Of a stretch of DNA of 64,000 bases, positions 12,446 through 64,000 are shown piece by piece. How positions within the stretch are numbered: the stretch's first letter is position 1; every line of letters begins with the position of its first letter. Below the pieces are notes generated by a model. The model worked only from the letters and a program-made list of their open reading frames with translations. It did no database searches and had not been told where the DNA came from. The stretch is from Dictyostelium discoideum. Taxonomy: Eukaryota. The position numbers were made by a program, and so were the translations under genes. Location: assembly GCA_000004695.1 (NCBI GenBank), contig CM000150.2:1-64000 (forward strand), written 5' to 3'.

Positions 12446-14207
12446 TCATTTTCATCAAAAGAGTAACTATATAATTTAAAACATATAGTTACCAATTGTT
12501 CCATAATTAAAAAATCATCATTTGATATTTGCTTTTTAATTGATATTAAAAGGTAATATAATATTGATCTACTCTCTCTTCCTTTCCTTGTTTTATTTGC
12601 AAATAGTGAAATTGATGGTTTTGGTTTGTTATCTATTATTTTTGCATTTTTTAAATTATTTAAAAAATTTGCAATTTTATTTTTATATTTATCAAAAATG
12701 TAATATAAACATCTTTGTGCGACACCTAATAAAATATTATGTAATATGTCTGGTTGTGTTTTTAAATAATTAATGGACAAAGGTTCGACCCACCCTCTGC
12801 CCACACCTTTGATACCAATATCTTTTGCTTTTTTTTCCCATATTTTTTTTAATTCTATATCAGCATTTAATTCAGCATAATTTGGTTTGGTGGAGTGAAA
12901 ATTTGTAATATCTTCTTGTTTTGTTAATGTACCTGAATGGCAAATAAATAAACCATCTCTTGGTTTGTCACATGTGTGACATGCATATTCATTTGAATTA
13001 TGTCCATTAAGTTTACACGATGCTCTAAATTCTGGAATATCCATTGTCAGTCCAAACGGTATAACATCTATTTGTTCATTTTCAATAATTAAATTAAAGC
13101 CATTACCAAAAAAGATGAAAACAATGCCCTAATTGTTTGATGAAAATTAAGTAACCAATCATTTGGTACTTCAAATAATAATAATTTATTATTTTTAAAT
13201 TCATTTCCAATATAATTTTCTATATCCAGCATTATAGTATAATCTTTCTTGTTTTGACACTGCATACTATCAGTGAATATTCTAAGTAAAACAATTTTAT
13301 TTTTATTTTTATTTTTTAAATCTTTAAATTGTTGACCACTTTTATAATTTGTATAAATTCCAGTTTCAAAATCTGTATCAAAATCTTTTCTTTCAAAAAA
13401 TTGCTTTGATTATTTGTAATAATTTTACTTTGTTCATTTTTACATTTTTTGGTGTTGAAATGTCCATTTCCATGATAAAATTGTTTATAAGAACGGTAAT
13501 ATGCAAGACAAAATGGACATATATTTTTATGCATAATATAATGAATAAAAATATTTTTAAAATTCTTTAATTTTTCTCTGCAATTAATGCATGATATGTT
13601 ATTTAAATTCATTTTGTTTGCTGGGTGGAAATTAAAAATAATTTTTTTTTTTTTTTTTTTCATTTTATTCAAATTTTAGCAATATAGCATTAAAATAACA
13701 TAATATAAAACCCAAGGCAACTGAAACACTTATTTATGATTAATTAATAAAAATAATAATAATAGAATTCAATTGCCACTGAAACAAATGAATAAAGAAT
13801 TAAAATTAATTTGGTTATCTTTTTAGTTTTTTTTTTTTTAATTTTCTTAATTTTTTTTTTTTTTTTTTTTAATAAATTTGAAATAAATAGTGTAATAATT
13901 GATTTGAAATGCATTTAAAATGTATTTTAAAAAATGTAATTAATAAAAGCTTAAAAAAGATTATTAAGTAATTTTAAATTACATTAAAAATAACTTTTTT
14001 AAATTTATTATAAATTGATTAAAACATTAGTTAAAACGCTTTATAATAAATTTAAAATGTCATTTTTAATTTAATTTTAAATGACCTTAAAAATATTTTT
14101 AAAATTACCTTTTTAAAAAGCATCACTAAAGCCAATTTAAAGCAAATTTAAATTGAATTTGCTTTAAATTGGCTTTAAAAATGCATTTTTCTTCGCTTTG
14201 TAACGTA
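12438..14207 (-). mobile_element. Element X copy (i): 5' portion in minus orientation, truncated by the DIRS ITR
   Basis: Minus ORFs 13316..13672 (zinc-finger-like N-terminus CINCREKLKNFKNIFIHYIMHKNICPFC) and 12436..13044 (MDIPEFRASC...CHTCDKPRDG...PDILHNILLG) are homologous to the 719-aa ORF at 39890. A TIR-like end caaagcgaagaaaaatgcatttttaaagcc lies at 14160-14207 on the - strand. Confidence 0.6.
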
Positions 14208-14589
14208 AAAATTAGCATTTTAATCTCTTTAAAAGCGAGGTCCGGATTTCGAAGCCGTTATTTAACGGATAAATATTTTAAATTTTTTTTTTGAATTTTT
14301 GTAAACTATATTAGGAATAAAAATGAAAATAAAAATAAAAAAAAAATATTCTAAAAGAATTACAAACCTTTTTAAATGGCAATGTTCTTTTTTTTTATTG
14401 GCAATGGTTTATATATATATATTTTTTTTTTTTAGATTTTCTAGATTTTCTAGATTTTACATATTATTCTTTATTGGACCTTTCTGTGAATAATTGAATT
14501 AATTATGAACAAAAAAAGTTATTTTTAAAAAGATAGAGTTACCCCGATCAATCTTTTCACGAATAATTTTTCATTTTTCATATTATTTT

Positions 14590-15213: not shown

Positions 15214-17011
15214 TTATAAATTTTTTTTTTTTATTTTAATTTTTTTCAATTTTTTAAAATATATTTTTTTTTTTTTTTGGCTAATAATTCCTTTCTTGAA
15301 AATTTTAACTTTTTTTGGTTTTTGAGGGGAGTCATGTTTTAGGGATCTTAGGATGATCTGTTTGTTATGTTGAATTTTGATTGGAGACAACATGGGTACA
15401 ATGACATTATCTGGATGGTTTGAAAGTGTTTGAGTGACAATTGCTGGTGTATTTGATGGTTTCTGAGTGGCAATTGCTGGTGGATTTGATGGTGCTTGAA
15501 TAACAATGGTTGGTGTATATGATGGTGCTCGAGTAACAATGAATGGTGGATTTGATGGTGCTATGGTAACAATGGTTGGTGAATTTGATGGTGTTTGAGA
15601 GACAATATCTGGTGGATTTAAAGTCTGAACAAAAGATGATGATGTTTTTGAAGTTGGTGGTTGTTGCAAAGCATTTGTCAAATGATGAATATTGGATATA
15701 TGTTCAATAGATGACACAAGTTGACGAGCAACATTCAAAGAAGGATTACAGGTAACAGATTTTTAAATAACATATTGGGGTATAGTAAGTAAACCTAATT
15801 CTTTCCTTAATTGGTTAATTAATGTTGGAGATGTCACATTACCATCCATCAATTTCAAACATTCATGTTTTAATTTTTCATTTTTAAAGGTATGGAAACA
15901 AGGATTTGCTTCATTAGGTAAATTATTATTCAATACATTAATTTTGGAAAAAAAGTCTAAAACTTTTAAAGGATCATCTTGAATCGCGATTGCATTAAAA
16001 TTGTAATTATTAAGATCATACCCAATTTTCTTTGTAAAAGAAAATAATATCTCAACAACTTTTCTATGGTTTGATAGGTGCAAATTTGATGTAAAAGAAG
16101 TTAAATCGTTTGAATCATTTGAATCGTTTGAATCATTTAAATCATTGTACTGTGGTTTAAAATCATGGATTCTTTCCTTTGCTTGATTATAATGAACTAA
16201 TTTATTTGGTCCAATACATATCGGTTTTTTGTTTGTTATTACACAGCGAAGAAAAAACCACCTTTAAATTCGCTTTAAATTAAATTTAAATTTGCTTTAA
16301 AGTCCTGAATTAAAGCAATTTTAAAGGTAATTTTAAGGTAATTTTTAAGGTTACTTTAAAATCACCTTAAAAATTACCTTTAAAATTACCTTTAAAATTA
16401 CCTTTTTAATGGCTTTAAAAGCGAGGTCCTGAGTTCGAAGCCGTTATTTAACGGATAAATTTTTTAAAATTTTTTTTTTAATTTTTCAAAAATTACCAAA
16501 AGGGATTCGATCCCCCGACCCTCTATCAAAGGGTAGTCTCATCAACCATTACACCATTTGATTGCTTTGATGAAAAATTTAAAAATGATAGAATATTTTA
16601 TCCCCATTTTTTTTTTCTAAAATTAGATCTTTTTTATTAAAAACCTTAAATTTATGTTTAAAGGAAATTTAAATTCACTTTAAATCTACTTTAAATATAC
16701 TTTAAATCCTATTTAAAATTAATTTAAAATAAATTTTAAAGGTATTTTTAAATATCTTAAAAATTATCTTAAAAATTACCTTAAAAATTACCTTTAAAAT
16801 CACCTTTAAAATCACCTTTAAAATTGCTTAAAAATTTATTTTAAAGCAAATTTTAAAGGCATTTTTAAATATCTTAAAAATTACCTTAAAAATTACCTTA
16901 AAAATGAATTTTTTAAACGCGGCTTTAAATTCAATTTAAATCCAATTTAAATCAACTTTTCTTTAAATTTGCTTTAAAGGTGCATTTTTCTTTGCTGTGT
17001 AATAACATCCT
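15214..17011 (-). pseudogene. Host-like ORF (about 340 codons) with Pro/Thr-rich 12-aa repeats, split by a MITE 3 codons after its putative ATG and carrying one in-frame TAA
   Basis: ORFs 15763..16083 and 15214..15738 share one frame and are separated by a single TAA. The frame stays open upstream to atgttatta at 17003-17011 (- strand), which is split by the MITE at 16242-16999. C-terminal repeats APSNPPxIVT occur five times. Confidence 0.4.
16242..16999. mobile_element. MITE (758 bp), complete, TIR CACAGCGAAGAAAAAACCACCTTTAAA.../...CTTTAAAGGTGCATTTTTCTTTGCTGTG, flanked by TA
   Basis: TIRs read directly. Flanks are gttatTA|...|TAataaca. The core holds a tRNA-like segment and a GAGTTCGAAGCC box. 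Confidence 0.8.
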
Positions 17012-20551: not shown

Positions 20552-21644
20552 AACAAAAAAATCGGCATTACAGATTATGACAGATCTTGGGTAGAAAAGT
20601 TAAAAATAAATTATTTGTACTTACAACCTGATATTTTACATAACATATTATTGGGTATTGTACAATGGGTTTTAAATTATGTTTTCAAAAAATATAAGGA
20701 TCAATTTACAATTTTTATAGAAAAATTAAAAGAAGCTAAAATTGGGGTGCACCAAAATTTACATCAGCAGAGAGATTTGAAGCACAATTTAGTAAAATTA
20801 AATACCTTTTGACAAACAATACAAACAACCAAGATCAACATAAATTTGTAAGAGTTTCAAAAATATTAATGGCAACATTTTTAGATAATTTTAACAATCT
20901 AAAAGAAAAAGATGATGACAATGATGATTTAATTTTAGGGCAAATAATTAAAAAAAATGAAAATATTTATTTAAAAAATAATATTTTATCAGACATTAAC
21001 TTTCATTACAAAAACATAGAAAATATTCAATTTTATAAATCAATTAAAAATTTAAAAGAAATATATAATGTTGGTGATGGAATTGAAGTTGCCTCAGAAA
21101 ATTCATTAACTGGAAGATGTAGTGCAATAATTATCGCTATTTGTTTAATAGAATTAAAAAATAATAAAAGTGCACATTCAATTTATATACAATACTTTGA
21201 TAAAGATACAGGTGATCAAAATAATAAGCATTTCAAGTATAGTATTTGATAACATAGTAAACACATTAATACCAATACAAATCGATTCGTCCAACTATCT
21301 TATAATTTATAAGTGCCATGACCAATTTTCAATAAGTAAAAAAAAAAATGAAAAAATTTCGTCGAACTTATTTACAAAACTTTTACATTTTTACTTAACT
21401 TTTTGTTTTTTTTTTTATTCCAATTTTCTTTTTTTTTCGGTTGGGAATTATAGGATTTTAAAAAAAAATTTATAAAATATATAAAAAAAATGACTCTCAA
21501 TAATTCTGCATCTTTTGAAACACCAAATAGAAGTGGTAATTATGTAAATAGATCATATATAACTTCACAAACATCACCAATAACACCAATACCATCTCTT
21601 ATTTTAAATCAAACTGATAACTCCATAGATCCACAACGTACTGT

Positions 21645-22423
21645 CACAGCGAAGAAAAAACCATCTTTAAAGCATATTAAAATTTAATTTAAAGCGAATT
21701 TAAAGTCCTGAATTAAAGCAATTTTTAAAGTAATTTTAAAGGTAATTTTTAAGTTTACTTTAAAATCACCTTAAAAATTACCTTTAAAATTACCTTAAAA
21801 ATTAACTTTTTAATCGCTTTAAAAGCGAGGTCCAGAGTTCGAAGCCGTTATTTAACGGATAAATTTTTAAAATTTTTTTTGAATATTTTGAAAAATTACC
21901 AAAAGGGATTCGATCCCCCGACCCTTTATTAAAGGGTAATCTCATCAACCATTAAACTATTTGATTGCTTTGATGAAAATTTAAATATGATAGAATATTT
22001 TATCCCCATTTTTTTGATCTAAAATTAGATGTTTTTTTATTAAAAACCTAAAATTTATATTTAAAGGAAATTTAAATTCACTTTAAATCTACTTTAAATC
22101 TACTTTAAATTCTATTTAAAATTAATTTAAATTCTATTTATAATTAATTTAAAATAAATTTTAAAGGCATTTTTAAATATCTTAAAAATTATCTTAAAAA
22201 TTACCTTTAAAATCACCTTTAAAATTACCTTAAAAATCACCTTAAAAATTGCTTAAAAATTTAATTTAAAGCAAATTTTAAAGGCATTTTTAAATATCTT
22301 AAAAATTACCTTAAAAATTACCTTAAAAATGAGTTTTTTAAACGCGGCTTTAAATTCAACTTAAATCCAATTTAAATCAACTTTGCTTTAAATTTGCTTT
22401 AAAGGTGGATTTTTCTTCGCTGT
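21645..22423. mobile_element. MITE (779 bp), complete, inserted in an element X exon, flanked by GT
   Basis: cgtactGT[CACAGCGAAG...CTTCGCTGTG]GTaagaagac, against the uninterrupted cgtactgttagaagac at 42340. Confidence 0.85.
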
Positions 22424-22545
22424 GGTAAGAAGACAACAAAGACCTCAAAGACCAAATGCAATTCATCCACCAACAACAAATATTATAGAAAAAATATTGG
22501 TGTATGAAACATTGCACAGAAATTGTGTTTCTCAATACTATGCAA

Positions 22546-23291
22546 CTGGTAAGGTCACAGCAAAGAAAAATGCACCTTTAAAGCAAATTTAAAGCAAAGT
22601 TGATTTAAATTGGATTTAAATTGAATTTAAAGCCGCGTTTAAAAAATTCATATTTAAGGTAATTTTTAAGGTAATTTTTAAGATATTTAAAAATGCCTTT
22701 AAAATTTGCTTAAAAATTGCTTAAAAATTTATTTTAAAGGTGATTTTAAAGGTAATTTTAAAGGTAATTTTAAAGGTGGTTTTTAAGGTGATTTTTAAGA
22801 TGATTTTTAAGATATTTAAATAGGATTTAAAGTAGATTTAAAGTAGATTTAAAGTGAATTTAAATTTCCTTTAAATATAAATTTAAGGTTTTTAATAAAA
22901 AAGATCTAATTTTAGATAAAAAAAAATGGGGATAAAATATTCTATCATTTTTAAAATTTCATCAAAGCAATCAAATGGTGTAATGGTTGATGAGACTACC
23001 CTTTGATAGAGGGTCGGGGGATCGAATCCCTTTTGGTAATTTTTGAAAAATTAAAAAAAAATTAAAAAAAATTTTTCCTTTAAATAACGGCTTCGAACTC
23101 AGGACCTCGCTTTTAAAGCGATTAAAAAGGTAATTTTAAAGGTAATTTTAAAGGTAATTTTTAAGGTGATTTTAAAGTAACCTTAAAAATTACCTTTAAA
23201 ATTACCTTAAAAATTGCTTTAATTCAGGACTTTAAATTCGCTTTAAATTAAATTTAAATTTGCTTTAAAGGTGGTTTTTTCTTGGCTGTGG
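22546..23291. mobile_element. MITE (746 bp), complete, opposite orientation to 21645-22423, flanked by GT
   Basis: ggtaagGT[CACAGCAAAG...CTTGGCTGTG]GTaagataa, against the uninterrupted ggtaaggtaagataa at 42470. Confidence 0.85.
22966..23040 (+). other. tRNA-like segment inside the MITE core (not a clean cloverleaf)
   Basis: A perfect 5-bp stem ACCCT/AGGGT encloses the 7-nt loop TTGATAG (GAT in anticodon position, 23005-23007). It is followed by GGGGGATCGAATCCC (T-arm or B-box-like), an acceptor-like 7-mer and a T-run. D-arm and acceptor pairing cannot be completed. Confidence 0.3.
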
Positions 23292-23880
23292 TAAGATAAT
23301 TTTGAAGAAAAAGAATGGTACAGCGGTTCCAAATCTCTTATTTCTTTAATAGTTAAAGCATTGCGTGGTGTTTCTCAAAAGTTCATTGACTCTCCTGATG
23401 AACTTACTTACACTGAAAAGGTTGCTTTTGAATTCACTTCAATACCTCTTTATGCTCCAATAAATTAAATCGTTTAAATAAAAAAAAATTAATATGATTT
23501 CACATACTCAACTTTAATTTTTTCTTTTTTTTTTTAAATCTTTTTTAATTTTTATTTTAAATTATTATTTTTAATTTTTATTTTTAAAGTGATATTATTA
23601 ATATATCTTATCAATTTAACTTTATAATATAAATTTATAAAAGCACTTTTAAATTGAATTTTATAAATATTATTAATAAGAATAATTAATAAGTGTACTT
23701 ATAAAGAGTACATTATAATTATAATTAATAATTACGCTTAATAATTATACTTAATAAGTATACTTAATTAGTATATTTAAAAAGTATACTTTATAATTAT
23801 ACTTATTAAGTACACTTTATAATAGTACTATTTACATTCCTACTTTAAAGATGCTTTAAAGGTTTTTTTTTCGCCCCTGT

Positions 23881-26865
23881 GCAACGGTACCAACAACCGT
23901 TTTCAGAAGAACAAGAAGTAAACTTACCATGGGTGGACGTCTGTTCCACCACAAACAAGTTTGGAAAAAATTGGGTCTTCCAAACTTTTGTCAAGAGGTC
24001 CTAAATGGATTAAAAGTCCATCTACTTCCAAACTTCAAGCCGATGCTAAACCCAATTCCGATTTCAATTCCAGAGGGTCCGAAATCAGATTGCATCACAA
24101 AGGAAGTACAAGACTTGTTATTAGACGATGCCATCGAACAAGTACTTCCAAACCGTTATTCAAAGCGCGTTTTTTACTCCAACGTGTTTACGGTTCCAAA
24201 ACCTGGAACGAATCTACATCGTCCACAATACAGAGACTTATTCCGCTTCGTGTGGAAAGGTTCGCACTACCGTTGGTAAACAATGCCGTTCGGGTTATCG
24301 ACAGCTCCTCGTATCTTTACAATGTTGTTACTTGGACGATCTATTAATCGTCGGTTCAACAAATGAAAAATGTTTAGCCAACCTCAAAAAGACAATGGAC
24401 TTACTTGTCAAACTAGGTTTCAAGTTTAAGCTGGAAAAGAGTGTTCTCGAACCAACTCAATCAATTACATTTCTTGGATTACGAATCGATTCAATATCTA
24501 AGAAGCTTCTTGTTCCCAAAGAAAAGAAAAAAAGTGTCATCAAGGAAATAAGAAACTTTTTAAAACTAGATTGTTGCTCCCCAAGAAAGCTTGCTGGTTT
24601 AAAAGGAAAGCTAATGGCACTGAAAGATGCAGTCATCCCATTCAGACTTTACACTCGTCGAACAAACAAGTTTCACTCTCAGTGTCTAACTTTTAGCCAA
24701 TGGAGATTGGGATCAATCATTCCCCATTCCTCACGAGGTCAGGTCAGAGATTTCGCATTGGTTAACAATTCTAAACCAATGGAAAAGAAATCAGTCTGTT
24801 TCCAAGTTACGACTATGTTCTTACAGTGGTCAACAACTCAATCAAACATGTCATTAAATCGTCGAGAAATGCTCGCGCTGTTAATGGCTTATCAATCGCT
24901 ATGTCGGAAACTGAACAACTGCAAGCTGAAGATTCAAACCGACAACACTACCACTCTTTCTTACATCAATCGCCAGGGTGGTCAGATACAAGATCTCTTA
25001 GTTCTGTTCGAACAACTTTGGAAACAATGCCTCAAGAAGAAAGTGAACTTGATTGGAGAGCCTATTCCAGGATTCTTCAATGTAAAAGCCGACCACCTCG
25101 GCCGTCTTTCAGAAATGAATCACAAATCATCGTTCATAGTAATCAAGAGTTACAACTGGCAACTGAAGAAGGAAGTGTTCAATCGTATCCAACTTCAATT
25201 CGGTCAAATACAGATGGATCTGTTCGCATCTCACCTCAACCATCAAACGACCAACTACTCAACCATCAGAATGAATGCACTCAACCTCGATTGGAGTCAA
25301 TGGAAGCAATGTCTAGCCTTCCCACCACCCATTCTTTTGCCTTCTATCGTGGAGAAGATAAACTCATCCAGTTCGAAGAAGGTTTCTACAATACTGATCT
25401 TCCCAATCTGGAGATCAGCAACTTGGTATCTGATGATTCAAGCACAAGTTCCTCGTCATCATCGTCACATGTTTCCTCAAGTACTGGGAACATTCCAAGA
25501 AGTATTGACCAAACAATCAGTAGAGTCGATACCAATTCAGATTCAACAACGTTGGAAGTTAAGGATTATTCAACTTTCCAATATCATGTAATGTCCTTCG
25601 CTCGTACAACAAATACAAAAACAGCTGAAGTCTTGGGAACCTTCCATTCTCAAAGTATATAGCTCCAGTTATACAAGATTCCGCAATTTTTGTACTTTGA
25701 ACTCTTTGAATCCAGCAAACATTACCTTAGTTGTCTTCTTGGATTATCTTACACATCTGTTCAAGCACAAACCTCCGTTAGCCTTCTCAACAATTAACGG
25801 TCATCGATCTATGTTGAATCAGTTGTTACTCCTTAGGAATCAAACTGATATTGTTAATGATCCATTCATTACAAGAATTATGACTGGTATTCACAAGTTG
25901 CGTCCTTAATCAGTAAAGTATAAAGAGATATGGGATGCAAATCAAGTATTAAAGCACTTATCTACCATCAAAGTCATCCACCAAGTACACATACACTTAT
26001 CTACTATCAAGGTCTCATTATTACTACTGAATCAATCAAAGGTCCGGTTATTAATGCTAAAGAACAAAGAAGTGGTGTTGTTTCAATCTTAGAATTAACT
26101 TCGTTAGATGATAAAAACTCTCAAGTATGTCCTGTTCGCCACCTTGCAACATACCTTAGAGCCTCTAAAGGAAGAAGAAAGCCCCCATTCGGGTAACTCC
26201 GTCTTTATTAAGAATGAGAGTGAACCGCTCCAAGTTAATGATATTAACTCAATTGTACTATCAACACTCTCAAAGTCAGGTATTGATATTGTCAAGTTCA
26301 AATCTCACTCTACCCGTTCCGCTATGGCTTCTCTACTGTTGTCCAATAACGTTCCGTTCCACGTTGTCAAGAAGATGGGTCGTTGGAAATCAAACGATAC
26401 TGTAGATACCTTCTAGGATAAAAGAATCATTGGTGAAAAATCTGGTGGTTTCTTAAATACTGTAGTCCAAATTTCATAATATATATATATATGATAATAT
26501 AAATTAAAAATTTATTAAATTATATTTTATATTAAAAATTAATATATATTATTCCCATCCCACCCGCCCATAGTCGGAATTCCATAAATCAAATTGTTTT
26601 AGTTTTTAGTGCCACTATTTTTATTTTTTTTATTTTCTTAAAAATTTCACAAAACTGTTTTTGCCACTTGGCATAATTATCGCGCCACGTGGAAATTTTT
26701 TACTTTTCTTTCGAAAATTTTTACTTTTCTTTCGAAAATTTTTTTTTCTTCGAATGTTCTAGAACATTCTAAAAAATTATCTTATATATTTGGGAAATTC
26801 TAATAAATAAATGTTATTCATAATATATATATATATATTTTATATAATAAATTAAATTTTTAATT
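23881..26865 (+). mobile_element. DIRS-1 copy F: 5'-truncated at the ORF1 end, heavily degenerate (deletions, stops), partial right ITR
   Basis: Eight short ORFs (23929..26416) all match DIRS proteins in broken frames. The ITR at about 26480-26865 has internal deletions and a duplicated tttcgaaaattttt. Confidence 0.85.
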
Positions 26866-27851: not shown

Positions 27852-27889
27852 CACAGCAAAGAAAAATCCACCTTTAAAGCAAATTTTAA
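27852..27889. mobile_element. Solo MITE or element X terminus (CACAGCAAAGAAAAATCCACCTTTAAAGCAAATTTTA) inside a DIRS ITR end
   Basis: The 38-bp TIR sequence is flanked on both sides by the ITR end motif attatcatatatatatat. Confidence 0.5.
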
Positions 27890-30800
27890 ATTATCATATA
27901 TATATATATATTATGAATAACATTTATTTATTTGAATTTCCCAAATATTTAAGATAATTTTTTAGAATGTTCTAGAACATTCGAAGAATAAAAAATTTTC
28001 GAAAGAAAAGTAAAAATTTCGAACCGGCACAATGACGCGATAATTGCGCAAGGTCGAAAAACTGAAAAATTCCGAACCGACACTATGCACAAAGTTGTGG
28101 AGGGTCGAAAACTCTTATTTTTTTGAGTTTTGCGAAATTTTTAAGAAAATAAAAACGTATAAATAGTGGCACTAAAAACTAAAACAATTTGATTTATTTT
28201 ATTTGGGAATTCCTCCTATATATATTTAAGATACACACACACACAAATTTTATACAAATAATTATTTCTCTTTATTAATTTTTAATATTATTATTTTTCT
28301 CATATTATAATTTTAGATATCAACAATAAAATATGTCTACCACTGTTAATAATAACGAAGCCTCTAGTAGTAGTACCTCTGCCACTAATAGCGCTGAATC
28401 CTTTGATTTAAGAATGAAATCAATGGAGGATCAAATCAACAACCTTTCCTTAGCCTTTACAAGATTCATGAAAGAACCTATGTTCTCTTCTAATACCAAC
28501 TCTCGTAGCCAACCTTCTCATGATAACTCTGACACCGAGAATGAACAAAGTGAAGATGAATCAAGTAACAATGTCGATGTTCCAACCGATTATCAATTAT
28601 CCGATACCTTACTTGGTCAGTACAAACATATGGTAAACAATCAAGGTTTACTCGTCGAAGAAGAATGTATCCTCAAGAAAGATGAGATATCCGAATTGAA
28701 TAAAGTATTCAACTTTCCATCTAACTTCCAAGTGAATGTCGCTCCATTCGGTACACCTGAAGGTATTACTGTATCATCCAACGTCAAGAACAATGATACT
28801 GACTTGTTGATTGTCGAAAAGCGAATCAACGATAGCTTAAAACCTTTGCTTCTTATGTCAAGTATGTTATCATCTGATAGCTCTAATGTCGATGTAGAAC
28901 TCAGAGTGCAATTGTCTTAGCCGTTAATGCTCAAGCATCGCTTAGTCGTGTCCGTCGTAACAACATCGCTAAAGAAATCTATGGTTCTGAAGTACTCTTA
29001 CCAATTAAGATCAAGGATACACCAAAGATGTTTGATGAAACTGAAACTGAACGTGTAAGAAAGCTAGCCAAATCAATCAGAAAGAACAACGAAGCAAAAC
29101 AATCATTGTTAAAATTGAATTATCATTCCAAGTCCAATGCCAAGAAATCAGTTAACTCAAGTGGTAATAACACTACAGGAAACAGTAGTAATAGTAAATC
29201 CAGTAGTGGGAGTAATGGCCGATCTAACAACTTCAATGGATCACCAAGTAATGTTGCATCAGGTAGCAACAATACCAAGTCTGCCAACGGTACCAACAAC
29301 CGTTTTCAGAAGAACAGGAAGTAAACTTACCAGTAGGTGGACGTCTGTTCCACCACAAACAAGTTTGGAAAGAATTGGGTCTTCCAAACTTTTGTCAAGA
29401 GGTCGTAAATGGATTAAAAGTCCATCTACTTCCAAACTTCAAGCCGATGCTAAACCCAATTCCGATTTCAATTCCAGAGGGTCCGAAATCAGATTGTATC
29501 ACAAAGGAAGTACAAGACTTGTTATTAGACGATGCCATCGAACAAGTACTTCCAAACCGTTATTCAAAGCGCGTTTTTTACTCCAACGTGTTTACGGTTC
29601 CAAAACCTGGAACGACTCTACATCGTCCAGTTCTAGATTTAAAAAGGTTAAACACTTACATCAACAACCAATCATTCAAGATGGAAGGAATCAAGAATCT
29701 ACCATCAATGGTCAAACAAGGTTATTACATGGTAAAACTCGATATCAAGAAAGCCTACCTCCACGTTTTAGTAGATCCACAATACAGAGACTTATTCCGC
29801 TTCGTGTGGAAAGGTTCGCATTACCGTTGGAAAGCAATGCCGTTCGGGTTATCGACAGCTCCTCGTATCTTTACAATGTTGTTAAGACCTGTACTTCGAA
29901 TGTTGAGAGATATCAACGTATCCGTCATCGCTTACTTGGACGATCTATTAATCGTCGGTTCAACAAAAGAAGAATGTTTATCCAACCTCAAAAAGACAAT
30001 GGACTTACTTGTCAAACTAGGTTTCAAGTTAAATCTAGAAAAGATTGTTCTCGAACCAACTCAATTAATTACATTTCTCGGATTACAAATCGATTCGGTA
30101 TCAATGAAGCTTCTTGTTCCCAAAGAAAAGAAGAAAGGTGTCATTAAGGAAATAAGAAACTTTTTAAAACTAGATTGTTGTTCCCCAAGAAAGCTTGCTG
30201 GTTTAAAAGGAAAGCTAATCGCACTGAAAGATGCAGTCATCCCATTCAGACTTTACACTCGTCGAACAAACAAGTTTCACTCTCAGTGTCTGACTCTAGC
30301 CAACGGAGATTGGGATCAATCATTCCCCATTCCCCAAGAGGTCAAGTCAGAGATTTCACATTGGTTAACAGTTCTAAACCAATGGAATGGAAAAGAAATC
30401 AGTCTGTTTCCAAGTTACGACTATGTTCTTACAACCGATGCCTCGGAATCAGGTGCAGGTGCCACACTCAAGAAAGGAAACAAGGTAATCAAAACTTGGT
30501 CATTCCAGTGGTCAACAACTCAATCAAACATGTCGTCAAATCGTCGAGAAATGCTCGCGCTGCTAATGGCTTATCAAGCGCTATGTCGGAAACTGAACAA
30601 CTGCAAGCTGAAGATTCAAACCGACAACACTACCACTCTCTCTTACATCAATCGCCAGGGTGGTCAAATACAAGATCTCTCAGTTCTGTTCGAACAACTT
30701 TGGAAACAATGCCTCAAGAAGAAAGTGAACTTGATTGGAGAGCATATTCCAGGATTCTTCAATGTAAAAGCCGACCACCTCAGCCGTCTTTCAGAGATGA

Positions 30801-39884: not shown

Positions 39885-39889
39885 ATCAT

Positions 39890-42049
39890 ATGAGCCAACA
39901 AAATTTAAATGAAAATTTTATAATTGATGAGAATAATAATAATTTAGAAAATGAAAATGAAAATGAAAATGAAAATAATTCATTTGAGGATATAGGAAAT
40001 ATATTAAACCAAAATGGACAAGAAAATGATGATATTGAAATTTTAAAAGAAAAAGAAAATGGAAATTTAGGAAAAGAATTAAATAATTATGAAATTGGAT
40101 TTTTAAAGTTGGGTTTAGAAAATGCTAAATCGTTAAAATTTATGCAACAAATTTTGGATTTTTTTAAAAACAATATAAATGCAATTAATGAAATTAGATA
40201 TACAACAAAGTATATGGATTCTATATTTTTAGCAAATTTACCTATCGATGGTCACTTTTTGAGTTACAAATATTATGAAGAGTCAATTTTTTATTATGAA
40301 ATTTGTTCAGTTGTAAAATTATTAATTGAAAAAAAAATTTTTTTAGAATATTTAGATTTCTCAAAAGACTATGAGCAAGGTATTTATAAAAATTATAAAT
40401 CTGGAGAACAATTCAAAAAAGTAAAAAATTCAATTTCAGATAAATTTATTTTATTAAGAATATTTAGTGACGGAATGAGTCATCAAGGTAGATCAGATTA
40501 TACTATAATGGTGGATTTTGAAAATTATAATGGTCCATTTTTTAAAAATAACAAAATTGTTTTATTTAGTGTTCCAAAAGAAAGGTTTCACAATATACAT
40601 CAAACAATTAAAAAATTATTTTCAGCGCAATTTAATAATAAATTAATAATTAAAGATAATAATGGAAATGATTATGAAATTATACCATATGGATTAACAA
40701 TGGATATACCAGAATTTAGATCATCTTGTAGGATTAACCATTATAATTGCAATGAGTTCTCATGTCATACATGTGATAAAGCAAGAGGTGTCGATTATTT
40801 ATTAAAAGAAGGAAATTATAGAAATCAAAAAGACATTATTGACTTTCACAATTCAAAACCAAATAAACAAGATTTTTTGAATCCTCAAAATAAAATTTTA
40901 AAATTAGAAACAGAACAAAAAATGAAAAAAATCGGCATTACAGATTATGACAGATCTTGGGTAGAAAATTTAAAAATAAATTATTTGTACTTACATACTG
41001 ATATTTTACACAAAATATTATTGGGTATTGTACAATGGGTTTTAAATTATATTTTCAAAAAATATAAGGATCAAATTACAATTTTTATAAAAAAATTAAA
41101 AGAAGCTAAAATCATTCCAGATCATTTACCACCATCAGAATCTTTATTTGGTGTAAAAACAAGAAAAGGTAGAGAGAATAGAAGCATATTATATTTTATT
41201 TTATTTTTTACTAAATCAAATGTATCAAATGATGATTCCTTATTATTAGAAGAAATGGTTCAGATTACTTTTTTATTATATCAAGATTCTTTCGACGAAG
41301 ATGATTTGGATAAAATAAATTATTTAGTTAAAAATTTTAATAAAAAAATATTTATGATAATACCAAATGAACCAATCAACTTTCACCTTTTATTACATTA
41401 TCCTTTATATATAAAAAATTGGGGTGCACCAAAATTTACATCAGCAGAGAGATTTGAAGCACAATTTAGTAAAATTAAAGACCTTTTGACAAACAATACA
41501 AACAACCAAGATCAACATAAATTTGAAAGAGTAACAAAAATATTAATGGCAACATTTTTAGATAATTTTAACAATCTAAAAGAAAAAGATGATGACAATA
41601 ATGATTTAATTTTAGGGCAAATAATTAAAAAAAATGAAAATATTTATTTAAAAAATAATATTTTATCAGACATTAACTTGCATTACAAAAACATTGAAAA
41701 TATTCAATTTCATAAATCAATTAAAAATTTAAAAGAAATATATAATGTTGGTGATGGAATTGAAGTTGCCTCAGAAAATTCATTAACTGGACGATGGAGT
41801 GCAATAATTATTGCTATTTGTTTAATAGAATTAAAAAATAAAAAAAGTGCACATTCTATTTATATACAATACTTTGATAAAGATATAGGTGATCAAAATA
41901 ATAAGTACCACTTTTTAAGAAAAAGCTTTTCAAGTATAGTATTTGATAACATAGTAAACACATTAATACCAATACAAATCGATTCGTCTAACTATCTTAT
42001 AATTTATAAGTGCCATGACCAATTTTCAATAAGTAAAAAAAAAAAATGA
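39890..42049 (+). CDS. Element X transposase-like ORF (719 aa here, N-terminally truncated), CACTA/En-Spm (Tnp2-like) family motif
   Basis: HLLLHYPLYIKNWGAPKFTSAERFEAQFSKIKDL fits the conserved H..l.HL...i..wGP......f..ERf...lK box of Tnp2/TnpD-type transposases. In copy (iv) the same ORF is continuous with an upstream zinc-finger-like exon (63601 onward). Confidence 0.55.
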   Translation: MSQQNLNENFIIDENNNNLENENENENENNSFEDIGNILNQNGQENDDIEILKEKENGNLGKELNNYEIGFLKLGLENAKSLKFMQQILDFFKNNINAINEIRYTTKYMDSIFLANLPIDGHFLSYKYYEESIFYYEICSVVKLLIEKKIFLEYLDFSKDYEQGIYKNYKSGEQFKKVKNSISDKFILLRIFSDGMSHQGRSDYTIMVDFENYNGPFFKNNKIVLFSVPKERFHNIHQTIKKLFSAQFNNKLIIKDNNGNDYEIIPYGLTMDIPEFRSSCRINHYNCNEFSCHTCDKARGVDYLLKEGNYRNQKDIIDFHNSKPNKQDFLNPQNKILKLETEQKMKKIGITDYDRSWVENLKINYLYLHTDILHKILLGIVQWVLNYIFKKYKDQITIFIKKLKEAKIIPDHLPPSESLFGVKTRKGRENRSILYFILFFTKSNVSNDDSLLLEEMVQITFLLYQDSFDEDDLDKINYLVKNFNKKIFMIIPNEPINFHLLLHYPLYIKNWGAPKFTSAERFEAQFSKIKDLLTNNTNNQDQHKFERVTKILMATFLDNFNNLKEKDDDNNDLILGQIIKKNENIYLKNNILSDINLHYKNIENIQFHKSIKNLKEIYNVGDGIEVASENSLTGRWSAIIIAICLIELKNKKSAHSIYIQYFDKDIGDQNNKYHFLRKSFSSIVFDNIVNTLIPIQIDSSNYLIIYKCHDQFSISKKKK

Positions 42050-42192
42050 AAAAAATTCGTTGAACTTATTTACATAACTTTTACATTTTTACGTAACTTT
42101 TTCTTTTTTTTTTTTCTTTTTTTCCAATTTTCTTTTTTTTCGGTTGGAAATTATAGGATTTTAAAAAAAATTAAAAAAATATTATAAAAAAA

Positions 42193-42482
42193 ATGACTCA
42201 CAATAATTCTACATCATTTGAAACACCAAATAGAAGTGGTAATTATGTAAATAGATCATCTTTAACTTCACCAACATCACCAATAACACCAATACCATCT
42301 CTTATTTTAAATCAAACTGATACCTCCATAGGTCCACAACGTACTGTTAGAAGACAACAAAGACCTCAAAGACCAAATGCAAGTCATCCACCAACAACAA
42401 ATATTGTAGAAAAAATATTGGTGTATGAAACATTGCACAGAAATTGTGTTTCTCAATACTATGCAACTGGTAAGGTAAGATA

Positions 42483-42530
<48 letters not shown>

Positions 42531-43179
42531 GACTAATTAAATTAAATAAACAAAAACAATACATAAGATTTCCTCTCGTTTTATTAGGACCTGTATATTA
42601 AATGCTGGCGGTACAAATTCAAATGAAAATAAAGTTGTTCTATCCAAATTGGTTAAATGGGTCAACAATAAACGTGGTAACACACGTATTAAAGCCCTAA
42701 ATACCCTTAGACTTTTAGTTAGAAATAAAGTAGAACAGTTCAGCGAGTTGCTCTCTCAGGTTCCAGCATTAATGGAGTATGAATCGGTATGTAAAAAAAA
42801 AAAAAAATAAAAAAATAAAAAAAAAAAAAAAAATAAAAAAAAAAATAAAAAAAAAAAAAAAAATAAATTATTAATAATTTGTTTTTTTAATTTTTTAATT
42901 ATTATTTAGATAACTCCTTTTGATTTGGCCACTCTTATTATCGATACAGTTACCTTAGAAGCTTTTGACTCCGATCCTTTTGTAAAGTTCTTAGTGTCTC
43001 AATGCTTTACAATTGAAGAAAAAGAATGGTACAGCGGTTCCAAACCTCTTATTTCTTTAATAGTTAAAGCATTGCGTGGTGTTTCTCAAAAGTTCATTGA
43101 CTCTCCTGATGAACTTACTTACACTGAAAAGGTTGCTTTTGAATTCACTTCAATACCTCTTTATGCTCCACTAAATTAA
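42193..43179 (+). CDS. Putative downstream exons of the element X gene (42193-42483, about 42590-42782, 42909-43179), separated by short AT-rich introns
   Basis: GTAAG and GTATGT donors and TAG acceptors were read off. The same linked segments recur in copy (ii). The splice pattern is inferred, not verified. Confidence 0.3.
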
Positions 43180-43975
43180 ATCGTTTAAATAAAAAAAATT
43201 AATATGATTTCACATACTCAACTTTAATTTTTTCTTTTTTTTTTAAATCTTTATTTAATTTTTATTTTAAATTTTTATTTTTAATTTTTATTTTTAAAGT
43301 GATATTATTAATATATCTTATTAAGTTAACTTTATAATATAAATTTATAAATGCACTTTTAAATTGAATTTTATAAATATAATTAATAAGAATACTTAAT
43401 AAGTGTACTTATAAAGAGTACATTATAATTATAAATAGTAATTACGCTTAATAAGTATACTTAATAATAATACTTAATAATAATACTTAATAAGTATACT
43501 TATTAAGTATACTTATTAATTTTACTTAATATGTATACTTATTAATTTTACTTAATATGTATACTTAATAATTATACTTAATAAGTATACTAATTAATTA
43601 TACTTAATAATTATACTTAATAATTATACTTAATAAGTATACTTAATAAGTATACTTAATAAGTGTATTTAATAAGTATACTTAATAAGTATACTTTATA
43701 AGTATATTTAATAAGTATACTTAAAAAGTATACTTTATAACTATACTTATTAAGTACACTTTATAATAGTACTATTTACATTCCTACTTTAAAGATGCTT
43801 TTAAGTATTTTTTTTCGCCCCTGTGAAAGGTATAGACAGGGTCATAGGTTCCCCGTCATTTTTTGAAAATGGGGTATATCCCTCTAAATAAATAAATCTA
43901 AAGCTAAATCCTATATTGACTTGCTATATTGCTAAAATTTGAATAAAATGAAAAAAAAAAAAAAAAATCGTAAAA

Positions 43976-44127: not shown

Positions 44128-44770
44128 CACAGCAAAGAAAAATGCACCTTTAAAGCAAATTTAAAGCAAAGTTGATTTAAATTTGATTTAAATTGAATTT
44201 AAAGCCGCATTTAAAAAATTCATTTTTAAGGTAATTTTTAAGGTTATTTTTAAGATATTTAAAAATGCTTTTAAAATTTGCTTTAAAATAAATTTTTAAG
44301 CAATTTTAAAGGTGATTTTAAAGGTGATTTTAAAGGTGATTTTTAAGGTAATTTTTAAGATAATTTTTAAGATATTTAAAAATACCTTTAAAATTTATTT
44401 TAAATTAATTTTAAATTGAATTTAAGTAGATTTAAAGTAGATTTATAGTGAATTTAAATTTCCTTTAAATATAAATTTAAGGTTTTTAATAAAAAAGATC
44501 TAATTTTAGATCAAAATGGGGATAAAATATTCTATCAATTTTAAATTTTCATCAAAGCAATCAAATGGTGAAATGGTTGATGAGACTACCCTTTGATAAA
44601 GGGTCGGGGGGTNGAATCCCTTTTGGTAATTTTTGAAAAATTTAAAAAAAAAATTAAATAATTTTATCCGTTAAATAACGGCTTCGAACTCAGGACCTCG
44701 CTTTTAAAGCGATTAAAAAGGTTATTTTAAAGGTAATTTTTAAGGTGATTTTAAAGTAAACTTTTAAATT
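44128..44770. mobile_element. MITE, truncated (one arm plus core)
   Basis: CACAGCAAAGAAAAATGCACCTTTAAAGC... through the tRNA-like core (n at 44613), ending near ...gattaaaaaggttatttt. Confidence 0.7.
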
Positions 44771-50486: not shown

Positions 50487-51585
50487 TACTTTTCTCAAGT
50501 TCTTGAACTATCGCATCATAATCAATGGTAGAAGTCATGATTTTTTACCTCATTTATTTAAGTGGTTGTATGAACCCACAGGGTTATAGTCCTCATAAAC
50601 AGGAAGTAGTAGACCAGGTGCATTAGGCATTATTATTAATACACGCTGACCACGCACATAAGGTTGGTTGTTAACATATTTAAAATCAGTTGCCACATAG
50701 CCTTTTGGAATTTCCATGTTAAACTAATCCTCTTAATAGGTGACCGATGGCGGGGTTGACCGTCAGACTTCTACAACACCCAACCACGTAATATCGGAAG
50801 TGCTTCTGTCATTGTTCTTTTATTTTTAGATGCTACGCGGTTGATTGTGGTTTACTTACACCAAAGTGTAAGCGTCGGTTATTTGCTGGCATACTTTCAG
50901 ACACGTCCCAAGTCTCCAATTCACCGCCTTCCGCTATTAAGGGTGCCTAATGACGGACATTCATCTCAAAATAAAACCAGGAGGGGTAAAACCATCCTAT
51001 ATACTAATCTTACGGACGTGGTGATATCGAATACCACATTCTGTAATTTAGATCATGATCGGTGTTATTTATTTAATGTTTTGGCTATTGCTATAACCGA
51101 CCAAGCTACTGTGTTTCCACAGAAATGACTCGAACCATCGACCCACAGCGTGTATATAGTGAGCTGGTGGTTTAACCTCCCAAGGGCGGTGTTCGACTAT
51201 TCGTCAAACGATGACAAGCTTTTTAATTTAATTAAACTACCACACCATCTACAATTTCGATTTTGGTAGAAGAGTTAGATTCAGTTAACGCGTAATCAAT
51301 GTTGGCTTCGAAATCCAGAATCTCTTTTTCCTACTGCTTGATTACTTTGCTGATCTCCAGCGGATACAGCACGCCTGGCTGATAACGTTCGATAACTGGA
51401 TTAACGAACGCAGCAATGGAAGCTTCATCGGCTTTCTTAGTACCGTTGAATGCTTCGGTGCGCGCGATATTTTCACGCTGGTCAAAATTGGAGTTACCGT
51501 TGTGACGAGATATCGATTCGTAGTTCGCTTTCAAAGCTTTGACAATATCGCGTTTCTCACCTAATGCATTATGTGCATGTGCAGC
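50487..51585 (-). other. Higher-G+C island I4: bacterial or phage-like operon fragment
   Basis: The minus strand has a small ORF (MEIPKGYVATDFKYVNNQPYVRGQRVL...NHLNK*) whose stop overlaps the next start in a taaATGa arrangement, preceded by gaggtaaaaaatcATG (Shine-Dalgarno-like). That next gene (MTSTIDYDAIVQELEK...) is cut by the DIRS ITR. A further ORF lies at 51331..51534. Confidence 0.45.
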
Positions 51586-51987
51586 AAAGAAAAATCCACA
51601 TTTAAAGCAAATTTAAAGCAAAGTTGATTTAAATTGGATTTAAATTGAATTTAAAGCCGGGTTTAAAAAATTCATTTTCAAGGTAATTTTTAAGATAATT
51701 TTAAGATATTTAAAAATGCTTTAAAATTTATTTTAAAATAATTTTAAAGAGGATTTAAAGTTGATTTAAAGTAGATTTAAAGTGAATTAAAATTTCCTTT
51801 AAATATAAATTTAAGGTTTTTAATAAAAAACATCTAATTTTAGATCAAAAAAATGGGGATAAAATATTCTATCATTTTTAAATTATCATCAAAGCAATCA
51901 AATGGTGAAATGGTTGATGAGACTACCCTTTGATTGATGAGACTACCCTTTTGGTAAATTTTCAAAAAATTTAAAAATTTAATTTAT
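51586..51987. mobile_element. MITE fragment (one arm plus a partly deleted tRNA-like core)
   Basis: gtgCAGCAAAGAAAAATCCACATTTAAAGCAAATTTAAAGC...tgatgagactaccctttgat|tgatgagactacccttttggtaa. Confidence 0.65.
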
Positions 51988-62255: not shown

Positions 62256-62514
62256 CACAGCGGCGAAAATCAACACTTTAAAGCACCTTTAAATCCAAGT
62301 ACTCTTTTTAATATATATTAATAAGTATACTTAATAAGTAATACTTAATAAGTACACTTAATAAGTATACTTAATAAATATACTTTATAAGTACTACTTA
62401 ATAAGTACACTTATTAAGTATACTTATTAAGTATACTTATAAAGTATTACTTTTTAAGTATACTTATTAATATATATTAATAATTAATTATTTTTATTTT
62501 TTTTTTTAAAAAAT

Positions 62515-62660
62515 GTTTTGTGTGGGAATTGAACCCGTGACCTCCCTTCCTGAAGTTCCGTGGAAATGTTTTATGTGGGAATTTAACCATGACCTCCCTT
62601 CTGGAAGTTCCGGGGGAAAAAATGTTTTATATGGGAATCGAACCCTTGACCTCTACCTTA
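62515..62660 (-). repeat. Three tandem units of about 48 bp resembling tRNA 3' halves (T-arm or B-box GGGTTCAATTCCC / GGGTTCGATTCCC, then an acceptor-like 7-mer and a T-run)
   Basis: The minus strand reads ...GAGGTCACGGGTTCAATTCCCACACAAAACATTTTTT, ...GGTCATGGTTAAATTCCCACATAAAACATTT and ...GGTCAAGGGTTCGATTCCCATATAAAACATTTTTT. No 5' half or anticodon arm is present. Confidence 0.45.
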
Positions 62661-62759
62661 TTAATTTATCGTATTTCTATGTAAGCTATAGACACTTTGA
62701 TAATTTTCATTGAAAATAGCTATAATATGAATGTTAAAAAACTTCCAAGTAAAAAAAAA

Positions 62760-63289
62760 AAGAATGTGAAATAACTCTGTGGTTGTTGTATTATTGATAT
62801 TGCTGTATGTAATTTCTATTGCTGTTGCTGTATTAGTGATGTTGTATTATTATTGTTGCTTTATTATTGCTGTTGTTGTACTATTGATGTTGCTGTTTTA
62901 TTGATGTTGCAGTCCTAACTGTTGTTGTGTTGTTATTATGTTGTAATTATTGTTGTTGTCGCACCTGTTGTGTTCAGCTACAGTGTTGTTATTGTGTTGT
63001 TATTGTGTTGTAATTGATTTTGAAGTTGTTTTGTTATTGTGTTGTTATTGTGTTTGTTGTGTTGTTATTGTGTTGTTATTGTGTTTGTTGTGTTGTTATT
63101 GTGTTGTTATTGTGTTTTTTGTGTTGTTATTGTGTTGATTTCATTTTTCAATTGATTTTGCAGTTGTTGTTGTACCTGTTATTGTTTTATTGTTTTATGG
63201 TTGCACCTGTTGTGGTTTTTATTATTGTTGCTAAAATTGTTGGTGTGTGTTGTAGTTGTTTGTTCTGTGTATATATTCATAAAATTTTC

Positions 63290-63290
<1 letters not shown>
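62760..63290. repeat. GT-rich minisatellite (tgttgttattgtg-type units), then a poly-T tract at 63290-63340
   Basis: Direct reading. It produces the artefactual Cys/Val-rich ORFs 62950..63138 and 63014..63577. Confidence 0.8.
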
Positions 63291-63334
<44 letters not shown>

Positions 63335-64000
63335 ACTTTTTTCAATTTTTTCATTTTTTATTTTTTTTTTGCCGAAAAGGGAAAACATGCATGTTTAATT
63401 TTTAATTTTATTTTTTTTAATTTAATTTTATTTAATTCTTTTTTTTTTTTTGTATTTTTTTTTTTTTTTCATTTTTTTATTTCACTTTTTTATTTTTATT
63501 TTTTCATTTTTCATTTTTTTTTTTTCGCTTTTTTATTTCACTTTTTTATTTTTATTTTTTTAATTTATTTATTTTAAAAACATATTTGAAATGGATTTAA
63601 AAAAAGTGGATTGCATTATTTGTAAACAACCAATTAAATGTTTCAAAGATATAGTTATACATTTTATTAAACATAATGATCGTTGCCCAATTTGTTTAAG
63701 CAAATATACATCATTTTCAAAAATGTATGCTTTAACAGGTCATTATTATTCACAAGGTTGTAATAATAAAAAAAATAATATAAAGGGTGAACAAAAATTG
63801 CAAGATGAATTTTATCAGAGGTTATCAAAGATTACAGGCGATAATATTATATACCCAACCAACTTATCCGATGACCCTTTCAATCATATGAGCCAACAAA
63901 ATTTAAATGAAAATTTTATAATTGATGAGAATAATAATAATTTAGAAAATGAAAATGAAAATGAAAATAATTCATTTGAGGATATAGGAAATATATTAAA

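Follow-up and report, generated by a model that had tools for sequence, protein, structure and literature searches.

The window analysed here, a stretch of 64,000 nucleotides of Dictyostelium discoideum DNA (contig CM000150.2, positions 1 to 64,000 of the forward strand), carries members of a transposon family with terminal inverted repeats (TIRs), among them a miniature inverted-repeat transposable element (MITE) and a long autonomous relative, element X. In this study, we show that modules resembling parts of transfer RNA (tRNA) genes are internal to these elements, that they recur across subfamilies and that their B boxes are preferentially preserved. The modules appear to be decayed promoter relics for which we infer an origin from tRNA genes, and the well-kept B box hints at a function retained at the DNA level. 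Binding of the B boxes by the RNA polymerase III (Pol III) factor TFIIIC would be the most economical explanation of the conservation pattern; it is because of this pattern that we favour it, with a probability a little under one half (about 0.45).

Transfer RNA genes shape where Dictyostelium retrotransposons land, and in other eukaryotes B boxes occupied by TFIIIC serve as boundary elements. If the boxes described here bind TFIIIC, there would be dozens of mobile extra TFIIIC sites in the centromeric clusters of DIRS-1, Skipper and DNA transposons, which would bear on the silencing or openness of these clusters and on the question why the elements nest in one another. If they do not bind it, the family would offer a tidy case of tRNA-gene capture and decay in a DNA transposon. 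Known kinds of such motifs are B-box sites like the extra-TFIIIC (ETC) sites, the A/B-box loci of the ribosomal DNA (rDNA) palindrome and the tRNA promoters of short interspersed nuclear elements (SINEs); new here is the motif on a cut-and-paste element. For comparison we used the window and ten further loci of D. discoideum and D. cf. discoideum (labels L001 to L010 among them; L005 and L009 belong to D. cf. discoideum).

The tRNA-shaped core of the MITE

An earlier note, made from the letters of the window, had described a degenerate tRNA-like segment in every MITE core and a B-box array in element X, and had proposed that such boxes could recruit TFIIIC or Pol III, form chromatin boundaries or act as decoys for retroelements that target tRNA genes. 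The strings it listed for the MITE were all found in place, namely the module, the anticodon-like hairpin, the B-box-like motif, the T-run and GAGTTCGAAGCC (see the table). Within the 71-nt module, pairing is possible at 6 of 7 positions of the acceptor, 3 of 4 of the D stem and 5 of 5 of the anticodon stem, and the T stem combines 3 G-C with 2 G-U pairs. The A box is kept in all copies of subfamilies A and B and has one mismatch in subfamily C. It lies 33 bp from the B box, a distance within the 30-60 bp quoted for efficient tRNA gene transcription in the work from which we also took the stringent D. discoideum A-box motif TRRYNNARYNG and the B-box motif GTTCRANNC (PMC5391098). The predicted +1 position is an A, not a G, and the module ends in TTTGGTA(A), after which TTTTT follows. 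On the minus strand, GAGTTCGAAGCC at 23089-23100 is a perfect GTTCRANNC, 70 bp after the first box. Its position is comparable to that of the ex B boxes, which are found downstream of about 80% of D. discoideum tRNA genes (PMC5911963). Because of this downstream ex-B-like box, the MITE core resembles a complete tRNA gene together with its flanking sequence and not a retroposed tRNA.

Some details had been described too uniformly. The anticodon-like hairpin is perfect in the copy at 22556, but its loop TTGATAG is shared by only two of the four window copies, the others reading TTAATAA and TTGATAA. The second box does sit beside a hairpin, but this hairpin is imperfect in the 22556 copy (CCTTTAAATAACGG, 23077-23090) and reads CCGTTAAATAACGG in the other copies. 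The claim that the core is a repeated part of the MITEs holds: a 33-nt core motif occurs four times in the window at up to three mismatches, versus none expected from shuffled sequences, and nine more modules were found in the ten other loci. Altogether there are 13 MITE copies in three subfamilies, 12 with an intact module and a thirteenth cut inside it. Subfamily A has nine copies, 88-96% identical among themselves; subfamily B is represented in L002 and L006, and subfamily C in L009.

Neither the MITE module nor the modules of element X are functional tRNA genes, as the earlier note had also held, since ARAGORN and Rfam at gathering thresholds find nothing and the segments fold no better than shuffled sequences. 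The Rfam tRNA model aligns the MITE module end to end at 14.8 bits versus a cut-off of 29. The corresponding E-value of 0.66 (4227 families, 89 nt) translates into about 0.1 such match expected per 64-kb window for the tRNA family alone, and the full-length alignment is thus suggestive, not decisive. ARAGORN makes no call at the module at normal thresholds. At the relaxed 80% threshold it calls exactly 22969-23039; as it makes 106 calls in 176 kb at this setting versus about 76 per shuffled set, this relaxed scan is uninformative. The module does not fold better than its shuffled versions (z = -0.27), and its minimum-energy fold is not a cloverleaf. A function of the modules at the RNA level was dropped on account of the folding energies. 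The B-box 9-mer alone is found once per 7.1 kb, counted over 470 kb and both strands. Strong evidence against chance comes from the comparison of copies.

Conservation is distributed unevenly over the MITE. When the three subfamilies A, B and C are aligned, identity is 40-65% in the arms, and the best window of 30 columns is the T arm with 93%. The block GGGGATCGAATCCCTTTTGGTAA is identical in all three subfamilies; between A and C, 23 of 23 positions agree in this block versus 36 of 50 (72%) in the 5' part of the module. The second module of subfamily C is GAGTTCGATTCC, and the hairpin loop and N59/N60 (AG versus TT) are the only places where A and C disagree in this module. Of the anticodon-like hairpin, one pair is broken in subfamily B and nothing is left in subfamily C, which argues that the hairpin is not under selection, and substitutions break the stem pairs of the module rather than compensating. 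Since the T-arm block and the B-box positions are kept while the anticodon hairpin is lost, selection, if any, would act on DNA motifs and not on an RNA fold. An exact scan of the JGI metagenomes for the invariant 23-mer gave nothing.

The B-box array of element X

Element X is about 5.6 kb long, with the terminal repeat CACAGGGGCGAAAA... and an open reading frame (ORF) of 719 aa. Its array of three tandem units, reported in the earlier note, is real, but only units 1 and 3 read GGGTTC(G/A)ATTCCC; unit 2 is ATGGTTAAATTCCC. The B box of unit 2 is intact (GGTTCAATTCC) in the 97%-identical copy of L001, which has the same array in a different flank. The T-runs, said to follow after 7 nt, begin after 10 nt, are missing after unit 2 and are not conserved in L004 and L005. 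Calling the units tRNA 3' halves was generous: Rfam recognises the 13-nt T arm only, via the transfer-messenger RNA (tmRNA) model, with module 1 at 7.2 bits. In module 1 a G stands at the predicted +1, exactly 52 nt before G53 and directly after ATCAAA, and the A-box candidate TAGCTTACATA has three mismatches to TRRYNNARYNG. The further boxes follow 55 and 109 bp after the first one, a spacing like that of ex B boxes.

One tRNA-sized module with one or two extra units occupies a constant position, with the GTATACTTATTAAG subterminal arrays on one side and the ORF-proximal region on the other, in six diverged lineages (window/L001, L004, L005, L009 and the two copies of L010; eight X copies in all). 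The L004 element has about 85% DNA identity over the aligned ORF-proximal stretch, and the L005 element has a D-arm-like GCTC-TCTTGGCA-GAGC exactly 23 nt before the T stem. We collected the 17 B-box 9-mers of the X units from these lineages. G53, T55, A58 and C61 are present in 17 of 17 units, T54 and C56 in 16 of 17 each. Position R57 is G in 13 units and A in four, N59 is T in 12 and C in five, and N60 is T in 13, A in three and G in one. The variation thus falls almost entirely on R57, N59 and N60, the free positions of GTTCRANNC, which would be the substitution pattern expected of a working B box. As the flanks of the units are barely alignable across the lineages, this restriction is the strongest argument that the B-box motif is maintained, and it marks the B boxes as the part that matters. 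The X units also share a second motif, CCGGAA(C/G)TTCC, which is unrelated to tRNA.

The MITE module and the X array have a common layout: both are oriented toward one terminal repeat and stop some 250 bp short of it. GTTCRANNC is fitted by the X units, by the second box of the MITE and by the second box of subfamily C, and no single module joins a +1 G, a stringent A box and a canonical B box. A nhmmer profile of the 13 MITE modules matches X over about 28 nt of the T arm only, at 4.7 bits, versus 5.1 bits for a genuine tRNA-Leu. Homology of the MITE core and the X modules was therefore not accepted, the profile scoring no higher against X than against this tRNA.

Two observations concern element X in other loci. 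In L010, two adjacent, internally deleted X derivatives of 2.5 kb (8926-11381 and 11516-14057) both keep the three-unit array. A T-arm-like GGTCAAGGGTTCGACCCACCC lies antisense within the ORFs of two distant family members (L009 7417 and L010 7441, minus strand), where it is probably held by coding constraint.

Forces that may maintain the boxes

According to the mechanism we favour, tRNA genes would have been taken up into the transposons as DNA, flanks included. The tRNA part would then have decayed, leaving no stable cloverleaf and, in some lineages, no anticodon arm, and the layout of a Pol III promoter would persist, with an A box (in the MITE), an internal B box and one or two downstream B boxes at 55-70 bp. 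The B boxes would act at the DNA level as landing sites for TFIIIC, like ETC sites, and would be retained because factor binding keeps the element end or core accessible or insulated in heterochromatic transposon clusters. As a side effect, they might occasionally attract retroelements homing to Pol III genes. A stronger version, in which the family has kept the B-box array under selection near one end, and its miniature derivatives in their core, and recruits host TFIIIC, the array forming an insulated or accessible chromatin patch within centromeric repeat clusters and secondarily a landing pad for Pol III-homing retroelements, is tentative and in our judgement somewhat unlikely. If it is true, the family would be the first lineage of DNA transposons to possess a conserved module for a Pol III factor, and its boxes would add a new class to the TFIIIC sites of Dictyostelium.

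Several results weigh against TFIIIC binding as the cause of the conservation. The Rfam tRNA score of the MITE module is far below threshold, and there is no Rfam tRNA match in MITE subfamily C or in the X modules. None of the folding energies beats shuffled sequences, with the exception of one minihelix of L004 (z = -2.1). By our own estimate, about 0.03 runs as long as the invariant 23 nt are expected in a 200-bp core at 72% identity, which makes the run no more than moderately improbable. Common descent of the MITE module and the X modules is possible, yet unproven, because the MITE module matches X no better than the T arm of tRNA-Leu. The autonomous X2 and P0015-type elements have no module, which means that it is not needed for transposition of every family member. 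Moreover, the first MITE box GATCGAATC has one mismatch to GTTCRANNC, an A at position 54. Initiator tRNA genes are Pol III genes, and for this reason A54, as we infer, is not necessarily a defect and may leave TFIIIC binding intact. Eukaryotic initiator tRNAs have A54 as one of their signature residues (PMC3950347). With only one real D. discoideum tRNA gene in the comparison set, the link from A54 to an initiator tRNA as donor is a lead, not a test.

The lack of tRNA-targeting retroelements beside the MITE modules counts on the same side. At tRNA genes, TRE5-A integrates about 47 bp upstream (PMC5391098) and DGLT-A 13-18 bp (up to 33) upstream; Skipper-2 is found 8-23 bp and TRE3 14 to about 300 bp downstream. 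For TRE5-A, a B box on its own is a weak target, at less than 1% of a tRNA gene (PMC5391098). None of the 12 intact MITE modules has a TRE5, TRE3, DGLT-A or Skipper-2 insertion at the published distances, and all 12 copies are colinear with the consensus through the target intervals except for one cut 127 bp downstream. The idea of a decoy for TRE or DGLT-A thus finds little support. An insertion of the TRE5-A type about 47 bp upstream was found neither in the 12 MITE copies nor in the eight X copies, a small sample of natural copies. As about 300 tRNA-associated insertions have been catalogued for about 418 tRNA genes, compared with 0 of 12 here, the MITE modules are clearly either far less attractive to these elements than real tRNA genes or far younger.

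Two of the eight X copies have an insertion of the long terminal repeat (LTR) type hard against the module. In L001, a 503-bp LTR-like sequence with TG...CA ends and a 4-bp duplication lies 11 bp upstream of the predicted +1, close to the 13-18 bp known for DGLT-A at real tRNA genes, and counts in favour of the TFIIIC mechanism. It is absent from the 97%-identical window copy and hence polymorphic; only 96 nt of it have a match (93%), to sequence upstream of the tRNA-Leu in L007, and no family was assigned. In L004, a complete Skipper-type element follows 3 bp after the first unit, with the duplication TTAT. Its identification as Skipper-2, made from a hand-read chromodomain, was rejected on three lines of evidence: it is the 61%-identical relative P0027 that stands beside tRNA-Leu, the strong Pfam Chromo match is in P0025 and those in P0027 and P0028 are weak or faint, and the LTR, at about 375 bp, agrees in length with that of Skipper-1 (390 bp) and disagrees with that of Skipper-2 (208 bp). 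The element is probably Skipper-1, which has no tRNA preference. The two insertions prove nothing on targeting. The tRNA-Leu(AAG) of L007 itself (10942-11023, minus strand) is genuine; a Skipper-2-type LTR (P0027) starts 5 bp after its 3' end, and upstream the motif ATTGTTACAATGGTT occurs three times in what looks like a nest of upstream insertions.

The conservation pattern could also have arisen without TFIIIC. A fragment of a tRNA gene might have been captured once or twice, for instance in gap repair making short elements, and have been decaying ever since as neutral debris, with recent ancestry or short gene conversion accounting for the conservation. The decayed cloverleaf, the missing folding signal, the substitutions that break stems and the autonomous elements without a module all agree with such a history, and subfamily A, with its closely similar copies, provides little information on it. 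This account has difficulties with the sharp contrast within one 71-nt module, in which 72% identity in the 5' part meets 100% in the 3' block, with the limitation of variation to three B-box positions in 17 units from six lineages, and with the retention of the array in the 2.5-kb deletion derivatives of X. We regard it as possible, if on the unlikely side. Pure chance in AT-rich DNA is an explanation that is refuted as far as sequence allows and to which we assign a negligible likelihood: the B-box 9-mer is frequent and the relaxed ARAGORN scan makes many calls in shuffled sequence too, but the Rfam alignment spans the full model with the A box at +8, G53 of X stands exactly 52 nt after the +1 G, and three MITE subfamilies and six X lineages show the layout again and again.

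Alternatively, the blocks may be sites for the transposase or another element-specific factor, as in a cis-acting transposition enhancer, so that the likeness to a B box would be ancestral or coincidental. The fixed position relative to one terminal repeat in MITE and X speaks for such a site, as do the CCGGAA(C/G)TTCC motif and the conservation that reaches past the B box into CCCTTTTGGTAA and the CCGTT/AACGG stems. Likely transposase sites are, however, the subterminal arrays, which X (GTATACTTATTAAG) and the MITE (GGTAATTTTAAAG) have at either end, whereas the modules stand at one end only; the autonomous partners of the MITE lack the block, and the tolerated changes are exactly those of the B-box consensus. 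This makes the explanation improbable in our view. Slightly less probable still is an active Pol III gene in the MITE module, which would give a small tRNA-like RNA and form a SINE-like head on a DNA transposon. It could draw on the perfect A box, the tRNA-like spacing from A to B box, the T5 run directly after the acceptor-like end and the transposon-derived small RNAs known in D. discoideum (thug-S), but a T4 lies inside the junction of T stem and acceptor (CCCTTTTGG), structure is not conserved, the anticodon arm being lost in subfamily C, the T-runs of X are not kept in L004 and L005, and folding z-scores are about 0.

Among known systems, the promoters of D. discoideum tRNA genes resemble the MITE in the A box at +8, the box spacing, the T-run and a further B box at 70 bp, and X in the further boxes at 55 and 109 bp. 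Unlike these genes, the transposon segments encode no foldable tRNA; the internal box of the MITE has A54 and its downstream box reads best on the opposite strand, and X is without a good A box. The A/B-box loci of the rDNA palindrome contain no tRNA, are duplicated and conserved, and have been put forward as assembly sites for Pol III factors (Spaller et al. 2017, PMC5391098); they share with the transposon modules the promoter-type boxes without a tRNA and the repetition by duplication. In contrast to the MITE modules, where no intact copy has a TRE5-A insertion, they are experimentally shown TRE5-A targets, 47 bp upstream of the +1 G (PMC5391098). Yeast ETC sites and B-box boundary clusters (cited in PMC5391098) also consist of solo or clustered B boxes without a transcribed gene; their occupancy and boundary activity have been demonstrated, whereas the present modules are known from sequence and lie on mobile DNA. 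With tRNA-derived SINEs such as mammalian B2 and MIR, the modules have in common that a tRNA-derived promoter is multiplied by a mobile element. SINE B boxes can bind TFIIIC, and SINEs are retroposed RNAs with a 5' promoter and a 3' tail. The MITE and X are not SINEs: they have TIRs, target duplications of fixed 2 bp, autonomous DNA-transposon partners and an internal module.

The transposon family and its surroundings in the window

The window is one of the DIRS-1-rich transposon clusters of D. discoideum, as judged from the products of D. discoideum assemblies that are 98% identical to the 719-aa ORF of element X (39890-42049) and from the GC-richer stretches encoding DIRS-1-type reverse transcriptase, methyltransferase and tyrosine recombinase. 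No RNA gene was detected in its 64 kb by ARAGORN or by Rfam at gathering thresholds. The features are listed in the following table.

Table. Positions of MITE and element X features in the 64-kb window
Feature	Position	Strand	Details
Full MITE copy, subfamily A	22556..23290	+	TIR CACAGCAAAGAAAAATGC... / ...TTTTTTCTTGGCTGTG; duplication GT; empty site 42475
tRNA-shaped module, 71 nt	22969..23039	+	Rfam tRNA model 1-71
A box TGGTGTAATGG	22976..22986	+	fits stringent TRRYNNARYNG at position +8
Anticodon-like hairpin ACCCT-TTGATAG-AGGGT	22998..23014	+	perfect 5-bp stem
B-box-like GGATCGAATCC in T arm	23019..23029	+	string located in window
Invariant block GGGGATCGAATCCCTTTTGGTAA	23017..23039	+	T arm with GATCGAATC and 3' acceptor side
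T5 run	23040..23044	+	Pol III terminator-like, from sequence
Second module	23077..23100	-	CCGTT-loop-AACGG hairpin overlapping B-box core GAGTTCGAAGCC
Full MITE copy	16242..16999	-	duplication TA; module 16493-16563
Full MITE copy	21645..22424	-	duplication AC; empty site 42347; module 21896-21966
MITE copy	44128..44756	+	module 44559-44629; cut off 127 bp downstream of module
MITE fragment	51582..51934	+	truncated within module; A box 51903-51913
MITE core fragment	14208..14300	-	hairpin and degraded second box; abuts end of X2-type element
5' part of element X copy	62256..64000	+	terminal repeat, GTATACTTATTAAG subterminal arrays, modules, 719-aa ORF start ~63885
X module 1	62617..62695	-	tRNA-sized; TAGCTTA at +8; T arm GGGTTCGATTCCC; T6 run
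X unit 2	62561..62616	-	CCGGAACTTCC... and ATGGTTAAATTCCC; B box broken
X unit 3	62508..62560	-	GGGTTCAATTCCC and T6
Second element X copy	39885..43825	+	ORF 39890-42049, downstream exons, 3' subterminal arrays, terminal repeat ...CGCCCCTGTG

The MITE is about 740 bp long and without an ORF, has the TIRs CACAGC(A/G)AAGAAAAAT... / ...TTTTTTCTTCGCTGTG and arms composed of GGTAATTTTAAAG-type subrepeats at both ends, and is flanked by 2-bp target duplications (GT, TA, AC). The window holds three full copies besides a truncated one and two fragments. Two insertions have visible empty sites in an uninterrupted copy of element X (window 42475 and 42347), and the copy at 22556 sits in an intron-like part of an X copy. 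What cuts the copy at 44128 is part of a different DNA transposon and not a TRE. The ends of subfamily B are nearly those of the autonomous X2 (L002 9218-14251, 5.0 kb), whose ORF is 49% identical to that of element X, and the ends of subfamily C are those of a third autonomous relative, the P0015-type element (L009 4979-10650). TIRs, 2-bp duplications, lack of an ORF, multiple copies, empty sites and autonomous partners with matching ends characterise the element as a MITE and, because of the matching ends, as a non-autonomous member of the family that also holds element X. Copy alignments, duplications and empty sites likewise support the statement that the modules are integral, repeated parts of TIR transposons. 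Of the X copies in the window, the one at 62256 starts where a DIRS-1 fragment ends and extends past the window edge, and the one at 39885 is missing the 5' module region.

The 719-aa ORF gave no match in Pfam and none to PDB sequences that would place it in a transposase family. The transposon family, with its CACAG... terminal repeats and 2-bp target duplications, is probably that of the DDT elements with their short derivative. DDT and thug DNA transposons of D. discoideum (Glockner et al. 2001) are mentioned in PMC5633606; like the present family, they belong to D. discoideum, have no recognisable transposase family, cluster with DIRS-1 and exist in a long and a short form. The accessible literature, to which the 2001 repeat catalogue does not belong, makes no mention of tRNA-like parts in DDT or thug elements.

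MITEs have repeatedly inserted into element X (20738-23889 compared with 41415-43832; L001 8043-9599; L003 6033-9899). In the window two adjacent MITE copies lie in one X copy, and MITE pairs occur in L001 and L003; the MITE-bearing X copy of the window is without about 525 bp (42485-43010), one exon included. The MITE arms (23143-23200 and its equivalents in all copies) form long AT-rich hairpins that match microRNA precursor models of plants and animals weakly, with at most 26.6 bits and far under the cut-offs; this may be relevant because D. discoideum is reported to have transposon-derived small RNAs (thug-S). An isolated MITE terminal repeat CACAGCAAAGAAAAATCCACCTTTAAAGC... at 27852-27890 is ended after about 40 bp by a DIRS-1 terminal repeat.

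Positions 1-100 of the window are a run of 100 N, and single N occur at 27431 and 44613, the latter within the B-box-like motif of the MITE copy at 44128. A GC-richer segment of 0.83 kb (44818-45650, about 45% by eye) is bordered by a transposon fragment and a DIRS-1 terminal repeat, and of this segment no second copy exists in the window or in the ten compared loci. It contains a 106-aa ORF fragment with the P-loop GSRQTGKT; this fragment has no Pfam match and no near match in phage or plasmid collections, its sole match being the phage family phrog_2586 of unknown function (E = 1e-7). Every DIRS-1 copy of the window has a pair of A-box-like and B-box-like motifs at tRNA spacing, TAACTCAATTG - 40 nt - GTTCAAATC, inside the coding region at the recombinase end, where it may be a coincidence within coding sequence; the pairs are found at 3179, 7586, 11803, 26296 and 32055 on the plus strand and at 46288, 52608, 57332 and 61739 on the minus strand.

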